From Dehalococcoidia bacterium (GTDB lineage: Bacteria > Chloroflexota > Dehalococcoidia > UBA2979): DNA of 64,000 nt. The stretch's first letter is position 1; each line of letters begins with the position of its first letter. Positions 47,208 through 57,167 of the stretch are shown here, piece by piece. The DNA lies in contig OZ244720.1 of assembly GCA_965219085.1 (NCBI GenBank), forward strand, positions 2,656,001-2,720,000. Reading direction: 5' to 3'. Both the position numbers and the translations under genes were made by a program. The notes beneath the pieces were generated by a model. It was not told the DNA's origin. It worked only from the letters and a program-made list of their open reading frames with translations, and searched no databases.

Positions 47208-48671
47208 ATGGCGCACTGGGATGGCGCGGAGGGCCCAGTGGCAAGCGACGCAGCGAGTACGTGGCGGCCGTTGCGGGTGAAGCTCGCCTACTCGGCGGGC
47301 AACTTGCCGGGCCAGGTGATCTCGCAAGCGTTCGCGCTGTGGCTCATCTTCTTCTACGCACCACCCGCCGGCGAGGACGCCCCGACGTTCATCCCCTCGC
47401 TCGGCCTGCCCGACCTCGACCTCGGGCTGTTCGCGCTGCCGGACGAGCTCGCGCCTAGGGTGCTACTCGGTCTCACGCTGACCATCGCGGGCATCGTCGA
47501 GGCGTTCGACGACCCGATCATCGGCTACCTGACGGACCGCACGAAGTCGCGGTGGGGGCGTCGCATCCCGTACGTCGTGCTGGCGACGCCGTGGTGGGCG
47601 TTCCTGTTCTTCCTGCTGTTCGTGCCGCCGTTCGGTGACGGCAGCATCGCGAACCTGCTGTGGCTGGTCGTGGTGCTCGAGGGCTACTGGCTGGCCAGCA
47701 ATATCTCAGGCGCTCCGCTCGAGGCGCTCATGCCGCACATTGCGAAGAGCCATGCGGACCGCGTATCGGTGGCCTCGATGCAGCTCGTGTTCGGCATCCT
47801 CGGCGCGTTCATCGGGCTCGCGGTCAGCTCGGTGCTGATCGACATCGTCGGGTTCCCGACGATGGCGGGCATCCTCGCGGTCGTCGCGTTCGTTGGGCGC
47901 TACGCGTCGTTGGCGGGGTGCTGGGACTACGCGCGGACGGACGACGAGCCCTCGACGCCCGGACTCGTGCGGTCGGTGCGCGAGACGCTCTCGAACCCGC
48001 ACTTCATCGCGTTCCTGCCGGGCTTCATCTTCTTCCGCATCGCGCAGATCATGATCACCGCGTGGATCCCCTTCTACGTCGCCGCAGTACTCGGGGATGT
48101 CGAGGCGTTCGGGTTCAGCGGCGCGGAGGACGAGGGCGCGTTCACGTCGGCGATGACGGCGCTGATCATCCTCGGGGTGCTGGCGGGGATCGCGATCTTC
48201 GCGCCGCTCGCGCGGCGCGCTGGCAAGGCGCGCGCGTTCCGCGTGTCGATGCTGTGGGGGGCGGCGACGCTGTTCCTGCTGTTCTTCGTCGGGTTCGTGC
48301 CGGGCGTGCCGAAGCTGGTGCAGACCGCCGTGACCGTGCTGTTCGCCGCCTTCCCGCTAGCCGGCGTGTTCATGCTGCCCAACATCCTCATCGCCGACAT
48401 CGTCGACCACGACGCGGAGCGCACCTCGACGCGTCGCGAGGGGATGTTCTACGGCACGCAGAACCTGCTGGAGAAGAGCGCCTCGGCGTTCGCGCCGCTG
48501 ATCTTCGCGCTCGTGTTGCTGGCCGGCGACAGCGCCGAGGACCCCCTCGGCATTCGCCTCGTCGGCCCCGTGGGCGGCGTGCTGCTCCTCATCGGCTGGT
48601 TCTCGTTCCGCCGCTACGCGCTGTACGACGATGTGCGCGGTGGCCAGGCGAGCGAGGTCGATGCAGGGTAG
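47208..48671 (+). CDS. GPH/MelB-type MFS symporter
   Basis: DPIIGYLTDRTKSRWGRRIPY, ADIVDHD, RREGMFYG. Confidence 0.88.
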   Translation: MAHWDGAEGPVASDAASTWRPLRVKLAYSAGNLPGQVISQAFALWLIFFYAPPAGEDAPTFIPSLGLPDLDLGLFALPDELAPRVLLGLTLTIAGIVEAFDDPIIGYLTDRTKSRWGRRIPYVVLATPWWAFLFFLLFVPPFGDGSIANLLWLVVVLEGYWLASNISGAPLEALMPHIAKSHADRVSVASMQLVFGILGAFIGLAVSSVLIDIVGFPTMAGILAVVAFVGRYASLAGCWDYARTDDEPSTPGLVRSVRETLSNPHFIAFLPGFIFFRIAQIMITAWIPFYVAAVLGDVEAFGFSGAEDEGAFTSAMTALIILGVLAGIAIFAPLARRAGKARAFRVSMLWGAATLFLLFFVGFVPGVPKLVQTAVTVLFAAFPLAGVFMLPNILIADIVDHDAERTSTRREGMFYGTQNLLEKSASAFAPLIFALVLLAGDSAEDPLGIRLVGPVGGVLLLIGWFSFRRYALYDDVRGGQASEVDAG

Positions 48672-48732
48672 CGGGGGGCAGGACTGTCGCCAGGGTCACA
48701 GGCTGAGTAGTGCCCGGGTAGCCCGTACTATC

Positions 48733-48742
48733 GTAATATTAC
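48733..48742. promoter_or_regulatory. perfect AT-rich palindrome containing a -10-like hexamer
   Basis: GTAATATTAC, 7 nt before the ATG at 48750. Confidence 0.5.
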
Positions 48743-48749
48743 AAACTCG

Positions 48750-51116
48750 ATGGCCATCGCGTATGAGCGGATCGAATACTCGGAGGGACCTGCCGTGGCG
48801 TGGGATTTCTTGGACGACATTCCGATGGATAAGAGCTACACGCTCGATCAGCTCACGGGCCGCTTCCAGTCCATGAGTAACGGGCTCCCGGAGCTCGTCA
48901 AGAACTCCAAGGACCAGTACATGAGACTGGGAGTGGATGAGCGCTCAGACCGACAGATTCTCGTGATCGCCTCTCCGACTCACGGAACGCTTGGTGTGAT
49001 CGATTTTGCGGGAGCTGGATTGGCGGATTTCGACGGTTGGCTAACCTGGTCGAGCCGCACGGCGGGTCGTGGCGACCTTTCTGGTGATATCGAAGCAGGG
49101 CACGGGAATGGCGGAAAGGCGTTCATGGTGCGTGGCTCCTCGGGCGAGTCCTTCATGGAGTCCTGCGCACTGGGCAAGCGAACGAAGATGGGCTTCGATA
49201 GCTCCTCCTCACGGTATCTATACATTCCGGCTTACGCTCGGGAGGGCAGCGTACAGGTCAAGGACGTAGACGAGAATGACGTTGTCGGTCGACTCGCTGA
49301 TGTGCTCACGGCCTTTGGCTTGGAATTCTCGGAAATCCCACCAGCGTGTCAGCGAGCGTTCGAACAAAGAAATGCCTTCACAGCTGTCGTGATCGGGGAC
49401 GTGCGGGACTGGCGAGGACGGAGAGCGCAGACTGTACAGCGACTCGCCGCCGAGATCCCCGAGGCCCTGTCCACGCACGCGCAAGCTTCGCTCACTATCG
49501 AGATGTGCGAGGTCCTGGTCATGGCAGGGAGCCAAGTCATCACGCCCGGACCGATCTCAGTCGAGTACCCCGATCCACGTGGGGGCTTCGAGGACCTGCC
49601 GCTGATTTCAGTGCCGAGCAGGTTGCCAGACCCCCGGACCAGAGAGCAGGTTTCCACCCTCGGTGAGCGGGGAGGCTCGGGGTCACTTCAGCTGCGAACG
49701 AGTGCCACCCACTTGCGCATGTCGGATCGGAACAAACCGCTAAACGTGATCAGGGTGCGCAACGCCCGCAACATCGTGGGCTCCTGGACCTTGGCCGACT
49801 TGGCACCGATTGCGGAGTCGGCCTTCGTCTACGGCGTGCTCTCGCTCCCCGCATTGAGAGGTGAACATCTCGCCGGCGCCGACCGGATGGGATTCGCCGA
49901 TACACCGCTGGTCCGCGCGGTGGCGAGCTGGCTGTCGGAACAGGTCGAGGATCTAGCGGAGCGAATCCGGGCCGCCAACGCAGCGCAGAACAGGCCCGAA
50001 GATCACGAGAAGGCGACGAACGCACTCGACAAGATGCGCGATCTGATGCGGAAGTATGTCGAGGCGAATAGGCCTGACGCTGGCCGTGGGCACGGTGAAG
50101 GGGAAGGCCAGGAAGGCCCGTTCCCTCCGCCACCGCCCGGTCCTCAGTGGGGCACAAGCGTTGACGAGATCGTACTTGAGCAAGGCAGCGATATGATCGC
50201 AGCGGCGGTCGGCACACAGGTTCCCCTAGTGTTCAGGGCTTACGAGATCACCGATTCAGGCGAGCGCCACCCGGTACGGCACGCAGAACTGGTTCTTGAG
50301 GCCGACGTTCCGGGGATAGTTGATCTTGAAGGGCGCGCTTTGCAAGTATTGAGTGAGGGCGCCACCGACGTGCGCCTTGTATCGCTCGACACGGGAGCAC
50401 GCTCAGATACAGTTCTTGTGGAGGCTGTTGTTTGCACCGGCGTGGACATCATCCCGCCCGGCGATCAATTGAAGCGGGGTCAGCGGTCACGGCTGACCGC
50501 GTCGTTCCATACTCCGTCAGGACACCGGACGGATCTGCTGATGCAAGCTTGGGTCGATGAAACAGACATGGGTACCTTGGGACGCACAGGTTACTTTACG
50601 GCCGGGTACTTGGAAGGCACCGCGACTTGTGCCGTACGCTATGGCGAGGCCAGGATCGATGTTCAGCGTGAGTTCGTAAACATCGGGCCAGAGGTCGCCG
50701 AGCGGCCTGGCGTCGGTGGGAGCGACATTCCGCTCATCCTGCTTTGTAGAACAGATGCTCCTGGCACCGAGGATCGCACCGCCGAGCAACGGACGCATCC
50801 GGGAGGGCCCGAGCACGCTACCATTATTGAGGAACCTCAGTGGCCTAACGTCGTTTGGATCAACCCTGAGAGTCAGGAAAGTCGGCGAGTTCGGCGGCGA
50901 GGGCCCGTAGGCCAAACGAGGATCACTACAAAGACGTACACTCAGTTCTTGGCGCTGAAGTGCTTCGAGATACTGAAGCGCCTGATAGTCCGCTCGGCCT
51001 TAGCTGGGGAGCGCGTTACTGAGGTGCGCTACACTGCTGAACTCACGCAGGCCGAGATGGATGCCGCAGGGTTCATCGATGACGCATATGCACTTGCCGA
51101 CGAGTTGACCCAGTGA
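48750..51116 (+). CDS. GHKL (MORC/Hsp90-like) ATPase with two Ig-like domains
   Basis: N-box LPELVKNSKD, G1 VIDFAGAG, G2 GHGNGGKA; helical segment, poly-Pro linker, two Big_2-like repeats, C-terminal VVWINP region. Confidence 0.75.
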   Translation: MAIAYERIEYSEGPAVAWDFLDDIPMDKSYTLDQLTGRFQSMSNGLPELVKNSKDQYMRLGVDERSDRQILVIASPTHGTLGVIDFAGAGLADFDGWLTWSSRTAGRGDLSGDIEAGHGNGGKAFMVRGSSGESFMESCALGKRTKMGFDSSSSRYLYIPAYAREGSVQVKDVDENDVVGRLADVLTAFGLEFSEIPPACQRAFEQRNAFTAVVIGDVRDWRGRRAQTVQRLAAEIPEALSTHAQASLTIEMCEVLVMAGSQVITPGPISVEYPDPRGGFEDLPLISVPSRLPDPRTREQVSTLGERGGSGSLQLRTSATHLRMSDRNKPLNVIRVRNARNIVGSWTLADLAPIAESAFVYGVLSLPALRGEHLAGADRMGFADTPLVRAVASWLSEQVEDLAERIRAANAAQNRPEDHEKATNALDKMRDLMRKYVEANRPDAGRGHGEGEGQEGPFPPPPPGPQWGTSVDEIVLEQGSDMIAAAVGTQVPLVFRAYEITDSGERHPVRHAELVLEADVPGIVDLEGRALQVLSEGATDVRLVSLDTGARSDTVLVEAVVCTGVDIIPPGDQLKRGQRSRLTASFHTPSGHRTDLLMQAWVDETDMGTLGRTGYFTAGYLEGTATCAVRYGEARIDVQREFVNIGPEVAERPGVGGSDIPLILLCRTDAPGTEDRTAEQRTHPGGPEHATIIEEPQWPNVVWINPESQESRRVRRRGPVGQTRITTKTYTQFLALKCFEILKRLIVRSALAGERVTEVRYTAELTQAEMDAAGFIDDAYALADELTQ

Positions 51117-51129
51117 AGGTGAGGCCACG

Positions 51130-51798
51130 ATGCCCCCGACGGCTGCACAGGTCGTTGTGCTTGCCGCTGTAGACCTCGTTGATACGGGGAGTGACGAATT
51201 CTCCGAGTGGGACTTGACCGTCGCGGCCTGGAAGCGCGACGCCAGTCGCTTCGGATGCCGCGGATACGAAGATCTCTATCCGGACCACAAGCGTGTGATG
51301 ATGGAGATCATGAGCCGGAAGAAGAAGGATAACCCGCTGCGTCGAGGCTGGATGGAGAAGGTACGGCCGAACTACTACCGGGTTACTCCGCTGGGGGTCG
51401 CTGAAGCTCGAAGGATCGGCGGATCTGGCCTGACTCCGTCGGCAGCTCCGGCGCCTCACGCGGTGTACGATGCTGTAATCCGTTACGTGGAGCATCCAGT
51501 TTTTCGTCGCTACCTTGAGGACAGCGATGAGCCAAGATCATGGGTGAGTGCCGCGTCATTCTTGAATCTCAATCAAATGACCGCCCTTGAGCTGGATGAC
51601 ACCTTGCGAGCAGCCTCAGGGGCGGCACGGGCGGCGTGCGAGTGGTTCCGAGAGTCAGGGGAGGTCACCCTTCGGAGGGGCCAAGGCGGTGGCGGACGAT
51701 CGATCCTGCGAGCCGAAGTAGAGCGGCTCCCGGAGTTCCTTGGTACCCTCGAGGCGCGTTTCGCCCCCCAGATGGAGGCACTCCGCGAGCGCACTTGA
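51130..51798 (+). CDS. hypothetical protein with N-terminal winged-helix-like domain
   Basis: DLTVAAWK...FGCRGY...YPDHKRV...GWMEKVRPNYYRVTPLG ends like a wHTH wing; RBS GAGG; 13 bp after the ATPase. Confidence 0.65.
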   Translation: MPPTAAQVVVLAAVDLVDTGSDEFSEWDLTVAAWKRDASRFGCRGYEDLYPDHKRVMMEIMSRKKKDNPLRRGWMEKVRPNYYRVTPLGVAEARRIGGSGLTPSAAPAPHAVYDAVIRYVEHPVFRRYLEDSDEPRSWVSAASFLNLNQMTALELDDTLRAASGAARAACEWFRESGEVTLRRGQGGGGRSILRAEVERLPEFLGTLEARFAPQMEALRERT

Positions 51799-51827
51799 GG
51801 AAGCGACTGCTTGGGATGCAACGATCT

Positions 51828-52810
51828 CTATTGGAGTGAGATGTCGCGGAAACGTGCCTCCGAAGTCGCGGCGTACGTCTCGTCAGCTTCGATAGCTAGC
51901 CATCTACGCTCGAGCGATTCCGCGACAAAGCCTGTAGTGTTACTGCCGGCGAACGGATCTAAGATAGTGTCACCGGGATCAGTAACGAACTTCACAAAGA
52001 ACTCTACGAGCTTCTGCGGCATTCGGGCGGGATGTGGATCTAACCCGTGCTTTCGACAGAACTCTTGGTAAGGATCGGCCGATCGAGTATTTGCGATCGG
52101 CAGGACGTCGTAGAGATCCATTAGGAGATCCTCAGCTGGTGGCGCCAAGACGTTCGGTGGAACGGCACCACCGCGATCGTTCAGGAACGATGTCTGTCCT
52201 ATCAGGTGCTCTGACGGTCGAGTTCCAGCGTTGTACGTGCCACGCCGCAGTAGACGCTTCATGGCGTCGCTATACTCTGTAAGGACGTGATGGTTATCTG
52301 CTTTCGGGCGCTCACTCGGAGCGAGCCACCACACACGTGTGAAGGCATCCTTTACGCGGATGTGCTCGACGTTCACCCATTGGACGGGTGATGGTAGACG
52401 GGCAGGGTTGAAGCAGATGAACTCTTGGCAAAGATGGAGCCCGGCGGATTCTTGAAATTCGAGAAGAGCCTTGAGCGGAAGGGTCGACATGGTCGGACTT
52501 CCTGGCTCCCAAGCGTTGCCTATTCGAGCACAATCGATCCATCAGGGGCCACATAGTCGCGGAACGTACTCGCAAATGAGGCGAGCCACGTCACATATGC
52601 TCGACCGGTGAGATTGCCGTACTTCTTCTTGCGATTGAGTGGGAAAGGTGGCGAGGTCAAGATGAGCTGTATGTGCTTGCGGTGTGCAGTGATTGGTTCT
52701 GCTTCAAGCAATGACTCTGCTTTGCCATAGAACATTGAGCCGCGGTGCGTGGAGTACAGAGGCTCCGCCGGGCGGGGGGATCTAGGCACCGCGAGCAACC
52801 TGCCTGCCAC
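51828..52810 (-). pseudogene. beta-class N4/N6 DNA methyltransferase (M.PvuII-like) split by a 1-nt frameshift
   Basis: LTSPPF in the 5' part; HPARMP and LDPFAGSNTTG in the 3' part. GAATAGGC near 52520 reads E-I-G-N-A-W if one A is restored. Confidence 0.88.
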
Positions 52811-52948
52811 AACAGCTGGCAGTCAGCGGCGGGTAGGCTAGGGCGGACAGCCAGTGCATGCGTGCACCGTATCACGCCGCCCCGCGCGGGCGCGATGTAG
52901 ACTGCGCCCCGGCCCGCCGCGCGGCGGGCGCTTCGAAAGGACGACGCG

Positions 52949-53908
52949 ATGCCGCTACATCCACAGGCGCAGGCATTCCTCGAAGTGGTCGAGGCAGCCA
53001 ATGCCGCGCTCCCGCCGCTCGAGGAGCGCGACCCGGCAACGTGGCGGCAAGAGGGCCTCGACCTGGCCGCGCAGGCGCGCGACCTGCCGTTCAGCCCGCC
53101 CGTCCACGCCGAGACCGACCGCACGATCCCGGGCCCGGCCGGTGACATCCCGGTGCGCGTGCTCACGCCGGCCGCGGGCGGCCCCTACCCCGTGCTCGTG
53201 TGGTTCCACGGCGGCGGCTGGGTACTCGGCGGGCTCGACGGCGGCATCCACGCGCTGCGGCTGCTCGCCAACGTCGCGAACTGCGTGATCGTCTCGGTCG
53301 ACTACCGGATGGCGCCCGAGCATCGCTTCCCCGCGGCCGTCGACGACTGCCTGACCGCGACGCGGTGGGTGGCCGCGCACGCCGCCGAGGTCGGCGCGGA
53401 CCCGTCGCGCATCGCCGTCGGCGGGGACAGCGCGGGCGGCAACCTCGCCGCGGTCGTGGCGCAGCTGGCGCGTGACGGCGGGCCGGACCTCGCGTTCCAG
53501 CTCCTCGTCTGCCCCGTCACGGACTCGGACTTCTCGCGCAAGTCGTACATCTCGAACAACGAGGGCTACCTGCTCAGCACCGAGATGATGGAGTGGTTCT
53601 GGGCGCAGTACATGGGCCCCGACGGCGACCGCACCGACCCGCGCGTCGCGCCGATGCGCACCGAGGACCTCGGCGGCCTGCCGCCCGCGCACGTCATCGC
53701 CGCCGAGTACGACCCGCTCGCCGACGAAGCCGTCGCGTACGCCGAGGCGATGGAGGCCGCAGGCGTCGACGTGACGCTCGTGGTGGCCGAGGGGCACATC
53801 CACGACTACGTGATGAACCTCGGGATCATCGACGACGCCGAGACCGCCATCGCCGACGTGGCGCGCAACATGACGCGGGCGTTCCAGCTCGCCGGAAGCG
53901 AGGACTGA
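52949..53908 (+). CDS. HSL-family esterase/lipase
   Basis: HGGGW, DYRMAPEH, GDSAGGNL, YDPL, HIH. Confidence 0.93.
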   Translation: MPLHPQAQAFLEVVEAANAALPPLEERDPATWRQEGLDLAAQARDLPFSPPVHAETDRTIPGPAGDIPVRVLTPAAGGPYPVLVWFHGGGWVLGGLDGGIHALRLLANVANCVIVSVDYRMAPEHRFPAAVDDCLTATRWVAAHAAEVGADPSRIAVGGDSAGGNLAAVVAQLARDGGPDLAFQLLVCPVTDSDFSRKSYISNNEGYLLSTEMMEWFWAQYMGPDGDRTDPRVAPMRTEDLGGLPPAHVIAAEYDPLADEAVAYAEAMEAAGVDVTLVVAEGHIHDYVMNLGIIDDAETAIADVARNMTRAFQLAGSED

Positions 53909-53909
53909 G

Positions 53910-54449
53910 ATGGGCAGTATGCCTGCGGACGCGGGGATACCCCGCCGGGCGCCTGCGGACGCGGGGATACCCCGCCGGCGAGCCGAAGGCTGGGTGAAGC
54001 GCCTGGACGCGGCGTTCGAGGGTGACGCCGCGTCCGTCATCGCCAACCTCGCGACCGTTCGCGAGGAGGACTGGACGTGGCTGCCGCCCGGCGGCGCCCG
54101 CTCGATCCGCGACCTCGTCCAGCACATCGGCAGCTCGAAGCTGTTGTACGCGGACGCCGCCTTCGCCGACGGCAAGCTCGGGTTCGACGACCCGATCGTC
54201 GAGGGCGAGGGGTCGCTCGGCACGGTCGGGCTGGGGGTCGCGTGGCTGCGCGCGGCGCATGCCGCGCTGCGCGCGGGCGTCGCCACGCTCGACGACGCTG
54301 CCCTCGACGCCGAGATCGGCATGCCGTTCGGCCGCACCGCGAACGCCGAGGAGATGCTGGATCAGCTCGCGCGGCACGAGGTCTACCACACGGGCGAGAT
54401 CAACCACCTGCGCGCCCTCGCGCAGGACGACGACGCATGGGCCTGGTAG
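53910..54449 (+). CDS. DinB family protein
   Basis: RSIRDLVQH...HEVYHTGEINHLR. Confidence 0.85.
   Translation: MGSMPADAGIPRRAPADAGIPRRRAEGWVKRLDAAFEGDAASVIANLATVREEDWTWLPPGGARSIRDLVQHIGSSKLLYADAAFADGKLGFDDPIVEGEGSLGTVGLGVAWLRAAHAALRAGVATLDDAALDAEIGMPFGRTANAEEMLDQLARHEVYHTGEINHLRALAQDDDAWAW
53921..53978 (+). repeat. 30-bp-period tandem duplication with internal palindrome
   Basis: GCCTGCGGACGCGGGGATACCCCGCCGG at 53921 and 53951. Confidence 0.9.
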
Positions 54450-54468: not shown

Positions 54469-55422
54469 CTAGAAGACGGCGCGGCTGTCGAGGTCCTCGG
54501 AGGACATCGGCTCCGCGAAGACCTCGGGGACGGGGCCGTCGCCCCACCACTCGATCTCGGGTTGCAGGCGCACGCCCGCATGGTCGAGCACGCGGCGTTG
54601 CACCTGCGCCATGAGCTCGACCATGTCGGCCGTGGTCGCGGTGCCGTCGTGGACGAAGAAGTTGGCGTGCAGCTCGCTCACCGTCGCAGCGCCGACCGCG
54701 AGCCCCTTGCACCCCGCCGCCTCGATGAGCCGCCCCGCGTAGTCGCCCTCGGGGTTGCGGAAGACCGAGCCGGCGTTCGGGCCGGCGGTCGGCTGCGTGG
54801 CCTGGCGGTGTTCGAGGAGCGTGCGCAGCTCGGCCTCGATCTCCTCCTTGGGGCGCGGCTGCAGCCGCAGCGTCGCGCCGAGCACCATCACGCCCGCCCC
54901 GCGCAACGATGAGCGCCGGTAGCCGAAGAACAGCTCGCTGCGCGGAATCGTCGAGCGCCCGCGCCCGCCGAGCACCTCGACCTCCTCGACGAGCAGGCCG
55001 ACCGAGCGGCCGTCGCCGATGCCCGCGTTGCTGTTGAGCGCCCCGCCGACCGCGCCCGGTATGCCGATCGCGAACTCGAGCCCGCCGAGGCCGCGCTCGG
55101 CCGCCGCGCGGCTGAGCGCGGGCAGCATCACCGCCGCCCCGGCCACGACGCGCTCGCCGATGAACGTGAACGATCCGGCCGCCCGCCTAAGCGAGACGAC
55201 GAGCGCGTCGATGCCCTCGTCGGCGACAAGCAGGTTGGAGCCCCCGCCGAGCACGCGCAGCGAGAGCCCCTCGGCGCGCGCCCAGCCGAGCAGCTGCTGC
55301 AACTGCTCGATGTCCTCGGGAATCGCGAGGTAGCGCGCGGGGCCGCCGAGGCGCAGGTAGGTGTGCCGCGCGAGCGGCGCGTGCTCGTGCACCTCGATGT
55401 CAGCGGGAGGGGGTGCGGTCAT
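54469..55422 (-). CDS. murB: UDP-N-acetylmuramate dehydrogenase
   Basis: GGPA, LGGGSNLLV, GLEFAIGIPG, NAG, YRRS, AGSVFRNP, HANF. Confidence 0.93.
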   Translation of the reverse strand: MTAPPPADIEVHEHAPLARHTYLRLGGPARYLAIPEDIEQLQQLLGWARAEGLSLRVLGGGSNLLVADEGIDALVVSLRRAAGSFTFIGERVVAGAAVMLPALSRAAAERGLGGLEFAIGIPGAVGGALNSNAGIGDGRSVGLLVEEVEVLGGRGRSTIPRSELFFGYRRSSLRGAGVMVLGATLRLQPRPKEEIEAELRTLLEHRQATQPTAGPNAGSVFRNPEGDYAGRLIEAAGCKGLAVGAATVSELHANFFVHDGTATTADMVELMAQVQRRVLDHAGVRLQPEIEWWGDGPVPEVFAEPMSSEDLDSRAVF

Positions 55423-55515
55423 GGTTCGTATGGTAGGGGAGGGACCGGATGGCGGCTGGCGACCAGGGTGAGGGCAGCGTCCCGAGGACGCGGCCTATGG
55501 TTTGATGCCACCAGC

Positions 55516-55734
55516 GGGCAGGCGCACGCGAACGGCATCGAGAGCTTCTGCTCGATGCTCGAGCGCGGCTACTACGGGACGTACCACCGGATGAGCCCGA
55601 AGCTCCTGGCGCGCTACGTCGCCGAGTTCTGGGGCCGCCACAACATCCGCGACCTCGACACCATCACACAGATGGCCGTCGTCTCACGCGCGATGGTGGG
55701 CCGCCGCCTCACCTACGAGCGGCTGATCAACTGA
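55516..55734 (+). mobile_element. IS1595-family transposase, C-terminal fragment
   Basis: HANGIESF.SML.RGYYGTYHRMSPK.L.RYVAEF.GRHN...GRRLTY; N-terminal part absent. Confidence 0.85.
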
Positions 55735-55914
55735 GGCGTGACAGTTTGGGTAGATCGGGCGTAGGCCGATGACTAGGGTGAGATTTGGCGCGGGGGCGTG
55801 CCACCTGCTCGGGGCCGAAAAGCCTGTCCGGGTGGGAAACCCCACTCCCCCGCGCCATCCAAACACACTGTAAACTACGTGCCGGTCAGCGCCAGACTCC
55901 GACCGCGCCGATTG

Positions 55915-56088
55915 TCAATCGTGCCGCTCATCAGCGTTGCGCCACCAGTTAGCGATGATCAGTCCGGCAAGAAACGCCACGAGGATCGGCCCGAGTGCCT
56001 TGAAGATGGCGAAGGCGACGAACGCTGCAATGGCGAGGCCGATCGCACCGAGGACGGCGATGGTCACCCATGCCGTTACCTCGCTCAC
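55915..56088 (-). CDS. small membrane protein (57 aa)
   Basis: GTGA overlap with the upstream stop; two hydrophobic stretches. Confidence 0.55.
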   Translation of the reverse strand: MSEVTAWVTIAVLGAIGLAIAAFVAFAIFKALGPILVAFLAGLIIANWWRNADERHD

Positions 56089-57167
56089 GCCGGCTCGCAC
56101 TTGATGAGCGCCGAGGTGAGCGGATACCGCATCCAGACCTCGACTCCGTACGGAGGGTTGAACGTTGGCCACTGGCCGGGGCGAGCGGCACCGAACCAGA
56201 TGTACTGCGTGCCGGCCCCATTGCTGATCTTGGCTGTTGGCTCTCCGTCAGCGTCTCGCCCCCACACAGCCCACTGAGCGTCCTTGGCCTGCCCCTCACC
56301 GCGCACACCATAGAACTCGACGTAGCAGGCCAGCCTGCCCGCTGGTACGTAGGGGAGATCGATAATCCCCTCGCCGAGTACGTGCAGGTGCGGCGGTCTG
56401 CCGCTCGTGTCGCCCCGTACGGCGTACTCGAAGCCGCGCGCTTCCGGTAGCGGGTCGACCGGATCGCATCGCACCGTCCACTCGCCGCGCGGAGCCACAC
56501 CCACACCCAACGTGTACGGGGCGAGGAGCGAGCGCGGCCGCTCCTCGCCGTCGAACTCCCCGAAGTAGATCACCTTCGGGGGCAACTCCCCGGCGGCCGT
56601 TTCTTGATGGTAGCCGACCCATGCGCTGACGCGCGTGCGTTGCAGCCCGATCCGCCCGTCGCGCGGCCGGAGCCCCGTACCCGAGACATTTACGCCGAAC
56701 CCATCCGGGCGCCCGGATTCCATCCTGTTGCCGGTGACCTCTGCGCTACACACCAGATGTCCGGACGCCTCAACCTCTGTGGCGCCTGGCCCTTGCCCGC
56801 TGATGGTGAACCCCCGGGCGGGCTGCGCGGCGGTGGGCGTCGGCGCAGCCGTGGGAGTCGCCGTCGGGGTGGGCGCGGGTGTCGGCGTGGACGCGGGCGC
56901 GGGCGCGGGCGCCGGTGTCGGCGGCGGCGGCCCCTCGACGATGCGTGTGCCGTACTTGCTGAGGAACGTCCCGTTGACGATCTCGGGCGCGCCAGCGATC
57001 CACGTCGTCCAGCTGTCGTCGTGCTCCCTGACGTAGATGCCCCGGATGTCCGCGAACCAGATCAGCGCTCCGTTGGTCTCCCACTCATCGTCCGAGAGCG
57101 CCGCCGGCCGCATCACCAGCGCGAGGAGCAGCCCGATGGTGGCGGCGACGAACAGGCGCGGGAGCAT
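56085..57167 (-). CDS. secreted protein: signal peptide, WIAGAP motif, Pro/Thr linker, two Cys-paired repeat domains
   Basis: MLPRLFVAATIGLLLALV after GGGGAGG; WTTWIAGAPEIVNGTF; PTPAP linker; two RGF...C...FG...PY...C(D/E)P units. Confidence 0.75.
   Translation of the reverse strand: MLPRLFVAATIGLLLALVMRPAALSDDEWETNGALIWFADIRGIYVREHDDSWTTWIAGAPEIVNGTFLSKYGTRIVEGPPPPTPAPAPAPASTPTPAPTPTATPTAAPTPTAAQPARGFTISGQGPGATEVEASGHLVCSAEVTGNRMESGRPDGFGVNVSGTGLRPRDGRIGLQRTRVSAWVGYHQETAAGELPPKVIYFGEFDGEERPRSLLAPYTLGVGVAPRGEWTVRCDPVDPLPEARGFEYAVRGDTSGRPPHLHVLGEGIIDLPYVPAGRLACYVEFYGVRGEGQAKDAQWAVWGRDADGEPTAKISNGAGTQYIWFGAARPGQWPTFNPPYGVEVWMRYPLTSALIKCEPA

Follow-up and report, generated by a model that had tools for sequence, protein, structure and literature searches.

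A low-GC island of 4.2 kb, inserted at positions 48675-52885 of the window (the whole 64,000-nucleotide stretch that was analysed, from a Dehalococcoidia bacterium), carries three genes as its sole cargo. These are gene A, coding for a GHKL ATPase, gene B, coding for a winged-helix protein, and M, a predicted N4-cytosine methyltransferase gene. The gene set is probably an uncatalogued defence system of the restriction-modification (R-M) type in which A and B would serve as the ATP-dependent effector. The fuller statement, an R-M-like defence whose last step needs no nuclease, is made tentatively and at somewhat less than even confidence. The set is a new family or architecture and not a new principle; it is a variant of the published proposal that paraMORC ATPases work in R-M systems.

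The island and its genes

GC content across positions 48500-52750 is 0.55-0.65, against 0.67-0.77 in the flanks. The island was not found in any of the 18 same-genus genomes searched, and in four of the five same-genus loci that were fetched the flanks lie 19-35 nt apart. With its low GC, the lack of a copy in congeners and the abutting flanks in relatives, the island is horizontally acquired foreign DNA. Direct repeats and an integrase were sought at the island ends and the junctions were read by eye; no integrase gene lies within the island. A promoter and terminator scan of the sequence gave no more sites than shuffled sequence. The original prediction had described a low-GC three-gene island between other genes, with A and B co-oriented and the methyltransferase converging on them, and the GC profile, the ORFs and their strands (+, +, -) agree with it (Table 1).

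Table 1. Features of the island and its surroundings (positions in the window).
Feature	Position	Strand	Basis or remark
Gene A	48750-51116	+	ORF, 788 aa; 198 homologues; structure model pLDDT 89.4
A residues 21-413: GHKL ATP-binding fold and S5/transducer domain	48810-49988	+	
A residues 466-650: two Big_2-type Ig-like domains	50145-50699	+	
A residues 655-788: conserved C-terminal alpha/beta and three-helix domain	50712-51113	+	Secondary structure of model, conservation
Gene B	51130-51798	+	ORF, 222 aa; 519 homologues; partner of A
B residues 1-99: winged-helix domain	51130-51426	+	
B residues 109-222: helical domain	51454-51795	+	No fold match
M C-terminal part, other frame: target-recognition region and DPFAGS AdoMet motif	51828-52519	-	PF01555 E 1.3e-20; PDLC03323 E 6.2e-62; frame by eye
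M one-base frameshift	about 52520-52523	-	Sequence and read contigs
M N-terminal fragment, 96 aa: motif IV TSPPF, premature stop	52520-52810	-	PF01555 positions 1-51; PADLOC PDLC03323 E 2.5e-16
Island flanking genes			MFS_2 transporter; Abhydrolase_3 esterase

The product of gene A is a GHKL (Bergerat-fold) ATPase with an S5/transducer domain, shaped like MORC, MutL and Hsp90. After this module come long helices, then a pair of Big_2 domains and the C-terminal domain. Both the GHKL fold with its second domain and the Ig-like domains (beta-sandwich fold or Pfam model PF02368) were recognised. The ATPase module is intact: E48, N52, D55, D85, G88 and G117-G119-G121-G122-K123 vary little or not at all among 99 sequences and in both families (family A, to which this protein belongs, and a sister family), and the motif residues E48, K51, N52, D85, G88 and G117-K123 are kept in both. 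From matching by eye, we take these residues to be the N-box ExxxNxxD, the Asp of DxGxG and the Gly-rich lid. The ELVKN motif named in the original prediction is present as PELVKNSKDQ. The protein does not reach the Pfam threshold: the MORC-type model HATPase_c_3 (PF13589, gathering threshold 25 bits) has no match in A at E <= 0.1, and distant relatives score 24.3, 19.3 and 17.2 bits, all below that threshold.

Outside the ATPase, the only polar residues common to both families are E/Q694, N705, K/R737 and E/D740, all in the C-terminal domain. Family A has Glu at position 694, where the aligned sister sequences mostly have Gln. E/D740 is the only strictly acidic column of this domain shared by the families, none of its His residues is conserved, and C666 and C738 are conserved within family A. 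A profile of the domain retrieved only chance-level rows among PDB sequences, nothing from Pfam at E <= 10, and from the Atlas only clusters without names. A search of the phage collection with A gave no match, and the few A-family records that bear a name are labelled hypothetical.

Gene B encodes a winged-helix protein, as had been claimed for the partner of the ATPase: its N-terminal domain has the three helices and beta-hairpin wing of a winged helix-turn-helix. All 30 of its nearest Atlas clusters are without names. A complex prediction for A (residues 21-788) with B gave an ipSAE of 0.00 in two runs, from which no inference on binding is drawn.

Conservation of the gene set

A profile search for the A family returned 1957 cluster representatives at E <= 1e-3, with 170 at E <= 1e-30. 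Family A was found at 21 genome loci in Acidobacteriota, Planctomycetota, Alphaproteobacteria, Armatimonadota, an Exiguobacterium MAG and DPANN archaea. Where the contig left room, B adjoins A in 16/17 of these loci and a PF01555 methyltransferase is present in 15/16. It is PvuII-like in 13/16, and in two loci (L010 and L011) another PF01555 methyltransferase takes its place. In the sister family B adjoins A in 53 of 57 loci and a methyltransferase is found in 24 of 28. A and B are co-oriented neighbours across loci, and the position of M is variable.

In the typical arrangement a small accessory gene precedes A and B, and a PF01555 methyltransferase is transcribed separately. One intact four-gene set, c3-A-B plus M, lies on the Ensifer adhaerens plasmid NZ_CP118613.1, and L008 represents another. 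The accessory gene lies upstream of A in 16/22 family-A loci and is missing from the window, where about 75 bp separate the island edge from the start of A. The co-occurrence of the three genes in distant taxa, which the original prediction had proposed as a check, was thus found across distant phyla and archaea. Its three-gene composition holds in part: B and the methyltransferase do recur with A, but the usual set has the fourth, small gene.

A frameshifted methyltransferase

M is assigned by its sequence to the M.PvuII family of beta-class N4-cytosine methyltransferases, the type originally predicted. Motif IV (SPPF) precedes motif I (DPFAGS), the beta-class order; PF01555 and the PADLOC MTase_II model PDLC03323 both match. 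The intact orthologue at locus L001 matches M.PvuII (PDB 1boo) at E 3.7e-76, and the target-recognition region aligns well. The PvuII R-M system also comprises the R.PvuII endonuclease and an Xre-type C protein. Neither has a counterpart here, and A and B are found in their place.

In the window the reading frame of M is split into 96 + 220 aa, the second ORF being callable from an ATG at 52490 (51828-52490). The frameshifted form was also seen in contigs of runs X1 and X2 and in one 151-nt contig of X7. The allele thus occurs in three runs from two studies, and A and B keep every invariant residue. One contig of run X5, of depth 2, has one more base, which makes M a single open frame. A broken M beside an intact A and B fits a classical lethal restriction enzyme poorly, or else the copy is dead. 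The tolerated frameshift counts in favour of the nuclease-free reading, but it may also be explained by a dead copy, by two methyltransferase fragments that still work, or by protection of the same sites by a second PvuII-like methyltransferase of the genome (L030, 43.5% identity).

With M frameshifted and the upstream accessory gene missing, the copy in the window is probably impaired. As likely as not it is an inactive leftover that is being lost, a reading that is orthogonal to those on the function of the family. Besides the two defects just named, decay is seen elsewhere, with one locus wholly broken (L018) and another truncated (L016). On the other hand A and B are full length with all invariant residues, 6/22 family-A loci are likewise without both accessory genes c3 and c5, and another sample holds a nearly identical element in which the M frame is open, though at the depth of 2 given above.

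Search for a nuclease or a known system

Neither A nor B has a match in Pfam, NCBIfam, PHROGs or PADLOC (PADLOC-DB v2.0.0, 2023), and the only PADLOC model detected in the gene set was that of the methyltransferase. In the same database no family was assigned to seven A-like proteins from the sister family or further away, to one B of the sister family, or to the accessory proteins c3, c5 and c8. A restriction endonuclease or other nuclease was found in neither A nor B with the four HMM libraries and fold searches (residues 655-788 of A and 109-222 of B were not searched alone by fold). This agrees with the original prediction of no recognisable restriction endonuclease. Neither protein looks like a conventional type II enzyme, and the locus is not a classical type II R-M system with a recognisable endonuclease beside the methyltransferase.

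Residues 655-788 of A gave no sequence match to PD-(D/E)xK, HNH, GIY-YIG, Toprim or MutL C-terminal domain folds. Inspected by eye across both families, the motifs misfit a Toprim, GIY-YIG, HNH or MutL-type endonuclease, and these candidates were dropped. A topoisomerase- or Spo11-like mechanism through a winged-helix Tyr was also dropped by eye, as no Toprim-type acidic cluster is conserved. Across 104 loci neither a helicase nor a nuclease gene recurs next to A. A literature search whose scope excluded subscription journals, REBASE and supplements turned up no description of the set. The earlier claim that no named system has this composition is upheld in the libraries searched, but MORC-like GHKL ATPases in R-M systems have been in print since 2008 (Iyer, Abhiman and Aravind, PMC2292703).

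Comparison with known systems

As described in that paper, the prokaryotic MORC and paraMORC1-5 families resemble A in several ways. They have a GHKL+S5 ATPase with a C-terminal extension, a link to DNA (mostly cytosine) methylases, and mobile, patchily distributed loci, and they are proposed to act on DNA according to methylation state. The loci described there also contain SFII helicases and nucleases (RE-fold, HNH, Vsr, TIR), none of which is conserved here. Set against that description, the present family differs further in its two Big_2 domains, its distinct C-terminal domain and its obligate winged-helix partner.

VcSduA (Shedu type, paraMORC3; PMC12137116) and Tiamat (preprint 10.64898/2026.09.30.754977) are described as sharing an N-terminal GHKL ATPase and an anti-phage setting with A, and Tiamat genes, as here, have methyltransferase neighbours. 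As described, both contain PD-(D/E)xK nucleases (DUF4263; DUF3684 plus nuclease), whereas A and B have no such domain or PADLOC model. The m4C system of D. radiodurans (PMC10855626) is unrelated and uses a GIY-YIG enzyme.

BREX and related methylation-based exclusion systems resemble the proposed system in that a site-specific methyltransferase marks self, an ATPase is required and phage DNA replication is reported to be blocked (PMC13326643, PMC9122589). BREX has six genes against three to four here, and no PglZ, BrxC, BrxL or PglX model matches A or B. PglZ is itself reported to be a nuclease in a 2025 preprint. By fold, the ATPase module of A matches the eukaryotic DNA-clamping ATPases MORC2, MORC3 and SMCHD1 best or nearly best, at 11-15% sequence identity. 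Unlike them, A has no CW or coiled-coil/hinge domains, and its partner and methyltransferase context is prokaryotic.

Proposed mechanism and alternatives

In the proposed mechanism M would mark host sites, and self would be told from foreign DNA by methylation. B would place the complex on unmethylated DNA through basic recognition-helix and wing residues (R55, R71, K77). A would form a dimer held by its C-terminal helices, whose N-terminal ATP gate would close around DNA as in MORC, MutL and Hsp90. The closed clamp, with no nuclease of its own, would keep incoming DNA that lacks methylation from being replicated or expressed, or would pass it to host nucleases. The original prediction had also assigned the marking of self to methylation, the reading of DNA to the winged-helix protein and an effector or scaffold role to the ATPase. 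By analogy, this last step may be likened to DNA compaction by MORC, MORC2 having been described as a DNA compaction machine (PMC12216690), and to exclusion by BREX. For the last step such nuclease-free clamping is slightly favoured over a cryptic nuclease, the former falling short of an even chance and the latter being rather unlikely. The most specific version is doubtful: a MORC-type clamp with a winged-helix partner (possibly kleisin-like, as MukF or JetA) would sense the missing m4C mark and disable the DNA by using ATP to trap or compact it, leaving it uncut. On that version the system would be a prokaryotic counterpart, and perhaps a forerunner, of eukaryotic silencing by MORC, and would give methylation-based immunity a second nuclease-free logic beside BREX.

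The role of MORC-like ATPases in R-M was predicted in 2008 and is still called proposed in a 2026 preprint. With its three to four genes the family is a small, self-sufficient system in which this role can be tested. If A and B do restrict without a nuclease, they would show how a GHKL clamp alone disables DNA and would link bacterial immunity to eukaryotic MORC silencing. If instead the C-terminal domain of A cuts DNA, it would be a new nuclease type. Either way the set may be counted as a candidate for a new defence system, and tools directed at m4C could be drawn from it.

That second possibility, the same R-M-like system with A-B as a true ATP-dependent restriction endonuclease, is the main competitor of the clamp and is considered unlikely overall. 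The C-terminal domain of A (E694, N705, K737 and E740, plus C666 and C738 within family A) would be the new-type nuclease, gated by the GHKL clamp as happens with the C-terminal domain of MutL or with the nucleases of Shedu and Tiamat; N705, K/R737 and E/D740 may form its active site. All GHKL defence and repair machines found described work with a nuclease: MutL and the topoisomerases (PMC2292703), VcSduA (PMC12137116) and Tiamat. This counts against the nuclease-free reading. The domain is also the best-conserved unexplained part of A, with polar residues common to both families. In four related loci A is broken and M intact, with no case of the reverse, as would be expected of an A-B that damages self DNA when it is unmethylated; the counts are too small to reach significance, given that the length of A is 2.5 times that of M. 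Against an endonuclease, A and B match no nuclease model and, by profile, no PDB sequence. A single acidic column of the domain is kept across families, with no conserved His, and in the window it is M that is broken while A and B are intact.

An improbable alternative is that the genes serve no defence and form a mobile unit for epigenetic control or DNA maintenance. The MORC/MutL-like clamp would then work with its winged-helix partner at methylated or hemimethylated sites in repair, chromosome organisation or gene silencing. The lack of a detected nuclease, the tolerated loss of M and the position of about six loci with scanned neighbours among housekeeping genes (L005, L006, L007, L009, L012, L018) would suit it, but the family is patchily spread over bacteria and archaea at 35-50% identity, the island was not found in the congeners searched, some copies are carried by a conjugative plasmid or by viral contigs, genes of the recombinase, toxin-antitoxin or McrBC-like kind neighbour several loci, and the fusion of homologue P0067 to an N-terminal MTaX1 (methylase-associated) domain (E 3.9e-10) and HARE-HTH among the accessory genes of relatives point to an R-M context.

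Conservation and spread of the gene set

The set formed by A (a GHKL+S5 ATPase), its winged-helix partner B and the PvuII-like N4-cytosine methyltransferase M is a real, conserved and unnamed system, of which the copy in the window is probably impaired. A word-indexed search returned 198 homologues for A and 519 for B. Few of the 120 matches listed for each protein are named, and the names read "hypothetical protein" except for one B homologue, labelled "PadR family" by one source. Many of the contigs with a listed A match have the same length as contigs with a listed B match. In a collection with one genome per species A is encoded at 21 loci, whose hosts are Acidobacteriota, Planctomycetota, Alphaproteobacteria, Armatimonadota, an Exiguobacterium MAG, Phycisphaerales and two DPANN archaea.

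The original prediction had presented the three genes as one system, and in distant taxa they do occur together. Where the sequence continues for 700 nt or more behind A (17 loci), B adjoins A in 16; the exception (L016) has a truncated A. A PvuII-like methyltransferase gene was found in 13/16 loci with room on both sides (11 convergent, 1 co-directional, 1 upstream). It is missing from L016 and the two archaeal loci; the archaeal loci carry a different PF01555 methyltransferase gene in the convergent position. A profile search for A through 1.84 billion cluster representatives gave 1957 matches at E <= 1e-3, 505 at <= 1e-10 and 170 at <= 1e-30. These include a sister family with a ~750-aa A and the same layout. 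Of 80 metagenome loci of this sister family, 57 have room for B and 53 of these have it after A; a methyltransferase gene is present in 24/28 loci with room (15 co-directional, 4 convergent, 5 upstream).

Most relatives possess a small gene directly 5' of A. One such gene, c3, encodes a ~75-aa helical protein and occurs in 10/22 loci of family A (the family of the window protein) and in 23 of 83 loci surveyed. Another, c5, is found in 6/22 family-A loci and 7 sister-family loci; its ~210-aa product contains the conserved motif YEHR, and its C-terminal part, judged by eye, may be a winged helix. Four sister-family loci have a coiled-coil + HARE-HTH protein in the same position. The three are interchangeable upstream of A and may act in regulation or as additional DNA-reading proteins. 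PADLOC matches none of them. The window contains no such gene, and only ~75 bp lie between the island edge and the start of A.

Outside the set the neighbours vary (serine recombinases, VapBC-type pairs, a McrBC-like pair, DUF3987 + AAA_25 genes), and other loci sit among plain metabolic genes. One copy is carried by a conjugative plasmid of Ensifer adhaerens; RefSeq lists A, B and the small upstream gene there as hypothetical. Copies were detected on 3 of 2.9 million viral contigs and in none of 50,697 phage records.

In two alphaproteobacterial loci, L004 (3230-6180) and L119 (2935-5918, on the Ensifer adhaerens plasmid NZ_CP118613.1), genes for an AAA_5 ATPase and a ~410-aa protein lie between the methyltransferase gene and c3-A-B. 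We take this pair to be McrBC-like, and two restriction-type systems appear to be nested there. A divergent branch (L114, L116, L117, L118), 25-27% identical to the sister family, is arranged as c3, B-like gene, A-like gene and a gene for a ~380-aa protein with DnaA_C and sigma-70 region 4 helix-turn-helix domains. In L116 the ~380-aa protein also has a weak HNH_3 match (E 0.028). These four loci contain no methyltransferase gene.

Predicted structures of A and B

No family in Pfam, PADLOC, NCBIfam or PHROGs matched A at E <= 0.1, bar one chance-level row of 15.6 bits. An AlphaFold2 model built from 99 homologues has a mean pLDDT of 89.4, and the nucleotide-binding motifs are invariant or nearly so (E48, K51, N52, D55, D85, G88, G117 to K123). 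In the model, residues 386-439 form two long helices, 445-458 a disordered Pro-rich linker, and 655-788 a small sheet followed by three helices; the last region had no match in sequence-based searches. The earlier label "MORC-like" holds as a description of the modelled fold. MutL and Hsp90 are just as near to it, and A falls short of the Pfam MORC-type model, on which distant relatives score no more than 24.3 bits (cut-off 25). One 1020-aa A homologue (P0067) carries an N-terminal MTaX1 domain (PF20296, residues 54-157, E 3.9e-10). A 2024 paper suggests that MTaX1 (methylase-associated X1) discriminates modified DNA (PMC10853773).

B has no match in the HMM libraries searched. Its model has a pLDDT of 91.3, and residues 109-222 are helical and without a match. 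The MukF and JetA kleisins top the Foldseek list at only E 0.04-0.2, so the apparent kleisin likeness of the model is a lead only. The polar residues common to both families (D28, D52, R55, R71, K77, Y83, E134) would fit binding of DNA through the recognition helix and wing, not catalysis. In family A the recognition helix starts with H-K, and sister-family proteins mostly have S-N there, a difference that would suit family-specific DNA reading.

As originally predicted, no restriction endonuclease was recognised: four HMM libraries and fold searches, in which A 655-788 and B 109-222 were not queried separately, found no nuclease in A or B. In an alignment of 33 family-A and 16 sister-family A proteins (columns kept in at least 88-90%), the common columns comprise the ATPase motifs, a number of structural residues and, in the C-terminal domain, E694 (D/E/N/Q), W703, N705, Y730, F733, K737 (K/R) and E740 (D/E). 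Family A has Glu at position 694, and the aligned sister sequences inspected have mostly Gln. The domain thus has one strictly acidic column common to both families and no common His, which looks thin for a metal-dependent nuclease, though the domain may yet be one.

Comparison with known systems

That MORC-like and paraMORC GHKL ATPases act in R-M systems is an idea already in print (PMC2292703), which a 2026 preprint still treats as a proposal. The five paraMORC families are described with helicases, nucleases and RE-fold/TIR/HxH extensions. None of these was recognised in the A-B-M set. A instead has two Ig-like domains and its own C-terminal domain, and it is accompanied by B, its obligate winged-helix partner, and by an m4C methyltransferase of PvuII type. 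PADLOC v2.0.0 matched only the methyltransferase fragments, as anticipated, and holds no model for A, B or the accessory proteins. No account of the gene set turned up in full-text searches of openly available papers.

Insertion site and methyltransferase frameshift

The three genes lie on a recently inserted island between a transporter and an esterase gene, with the methyltransferase gene convergent to B. GC content is 0.55-0.65 across 48500-52750 and 0.67-0.77 on either side. The window's genome is a single contig of 3.3 Mb. The island flanks were matched in 18/18 same-genus genomes searched, and among the matches listed, which leave out 37 weaker ones, the island itself had none in these genomes. 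Because the flanks sit 19-35 nt apart in 4/5 relatives' loci compared, the island bounds can be placed at ~48675-52885. One relative (G016) has 767 nt of unrelated DNA with two small ORFs at this intergenic position (L025 3180-3946), and in another (G007) the two flank matches have about the same spacing as in G016. Small mobile cargo therefore seems to enter the site repeatedly, as in a hotspot.

Feature coordinates (window positions, or positions in the locus named; G000 is the window's own genome)
Feature	Position	Strand	Remark
MFS_2 transporter gene	47208-48671		left flank of island
A	48750-51116	+	788 aa
B	51130-51798	+	222 aa
Methyltransferase fragment with DPFAGS	51828-52490	-	220 aa, other frame
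Methyltransferase fragment with TSPPF	52520-52810	-	96 aa
Abhydrolase_3 esterase gene	52949-53908		right flank of island
123-aa ORF	55363-55734	+	
Second PvuII-like methyltransferase gene and downstream ORF	L030 488-2415		G000:C1 ~1,032,450-1,034,380
Example gene upstream of A	L036 1317-1583		
Example gene upstream of A	L039 2369-2596		
Example gene upstream of A	L008 6350-6979		
Example gene upstream of A	L062 1996-2454		

Both methyltransferase fragments match Pfam N6_N4_Mtase and the PADLOC type II methyltransferase model PDLC03323 (E 2.5e-16 and 6.2e-62). The intact M orthologue of L001 aligns with the N4-cytosine methyltransferase M.PvuII (PDB 1boo; E 3.7e-76). The alignment covers 308 residues and takes in the stretch that separates the catalytic motif from the AdoMet motif. 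The window's gene loses its frame at 52520-52523, and its downstream part runs on in another frame. The frameshifted form is present in contigs of two public runs of one study, possibly this assembly's own source, and in one 151-nt contig from a run of another study (depth 4.4). One contig of a third study has one extra base there and a single open frame, weakly supported at depth 2. These forms suggest a genuine frameshift of recent origin.

Five other intact PF01555 genes lie in the window's genome. One is PvuII-like (L030; 316 aa, 43.5% identity to the island methyltransferase) and might protect the sites of the broken enzyme too. The last 4 nt of its gene also belong to the start of a downstream 326-aa ORF, which has no Pfam match and is a candidate endonuclease.

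Proposed mode of action

Beyond the folds, motifs, gene linkage and mobility documented here, a mode of action can be proposed. M would mark host sites with m4C, B would bring A to unmarked DNA, and A, dimerised via its C-terminal helices, would close its ATP gate on the DNA. The final step is tentatively seen as a nuclease-free block or a hand-over of DNA to host nucleases, because no nuclease signature survives the comparison of the two families and because the window's genome is viable although M is broken and A-B intact.

Both observations speak against a cryptic nuclease in the C-terminal domain of A, a reading only slightly less likely. In its favour, the GHKL DNA machines taken from PMC2292703, PMC12137116 and the Tiamat preprint all use a nuclease. 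Four related loci combine a broken A with an intact M and none shows the reverse, the decay pattern of a harmful restriction gene, in numbers too few to weigh. The tolerated frameshift could also be explained by a dead copy, by two methyltransferase fragments still working together, or by cover from the L030 enzyme. A non-defence role for the module is improbable.

Other features of the window

A unit of ~50-60 nt is repeated in tandem at ~53915-53980, where an ORF starting at 53910 encodes one peptide twice. The unit has many further matches in its own genome and in congeners (80-88% identity) and resembles a dispersed REP-type repeat. The 123-aa ORF lies within a second low-GC stretch (0.64-0.65 at 55500-56250), and its translation presumably resembles the C-terminal part of an IS-family transposase.
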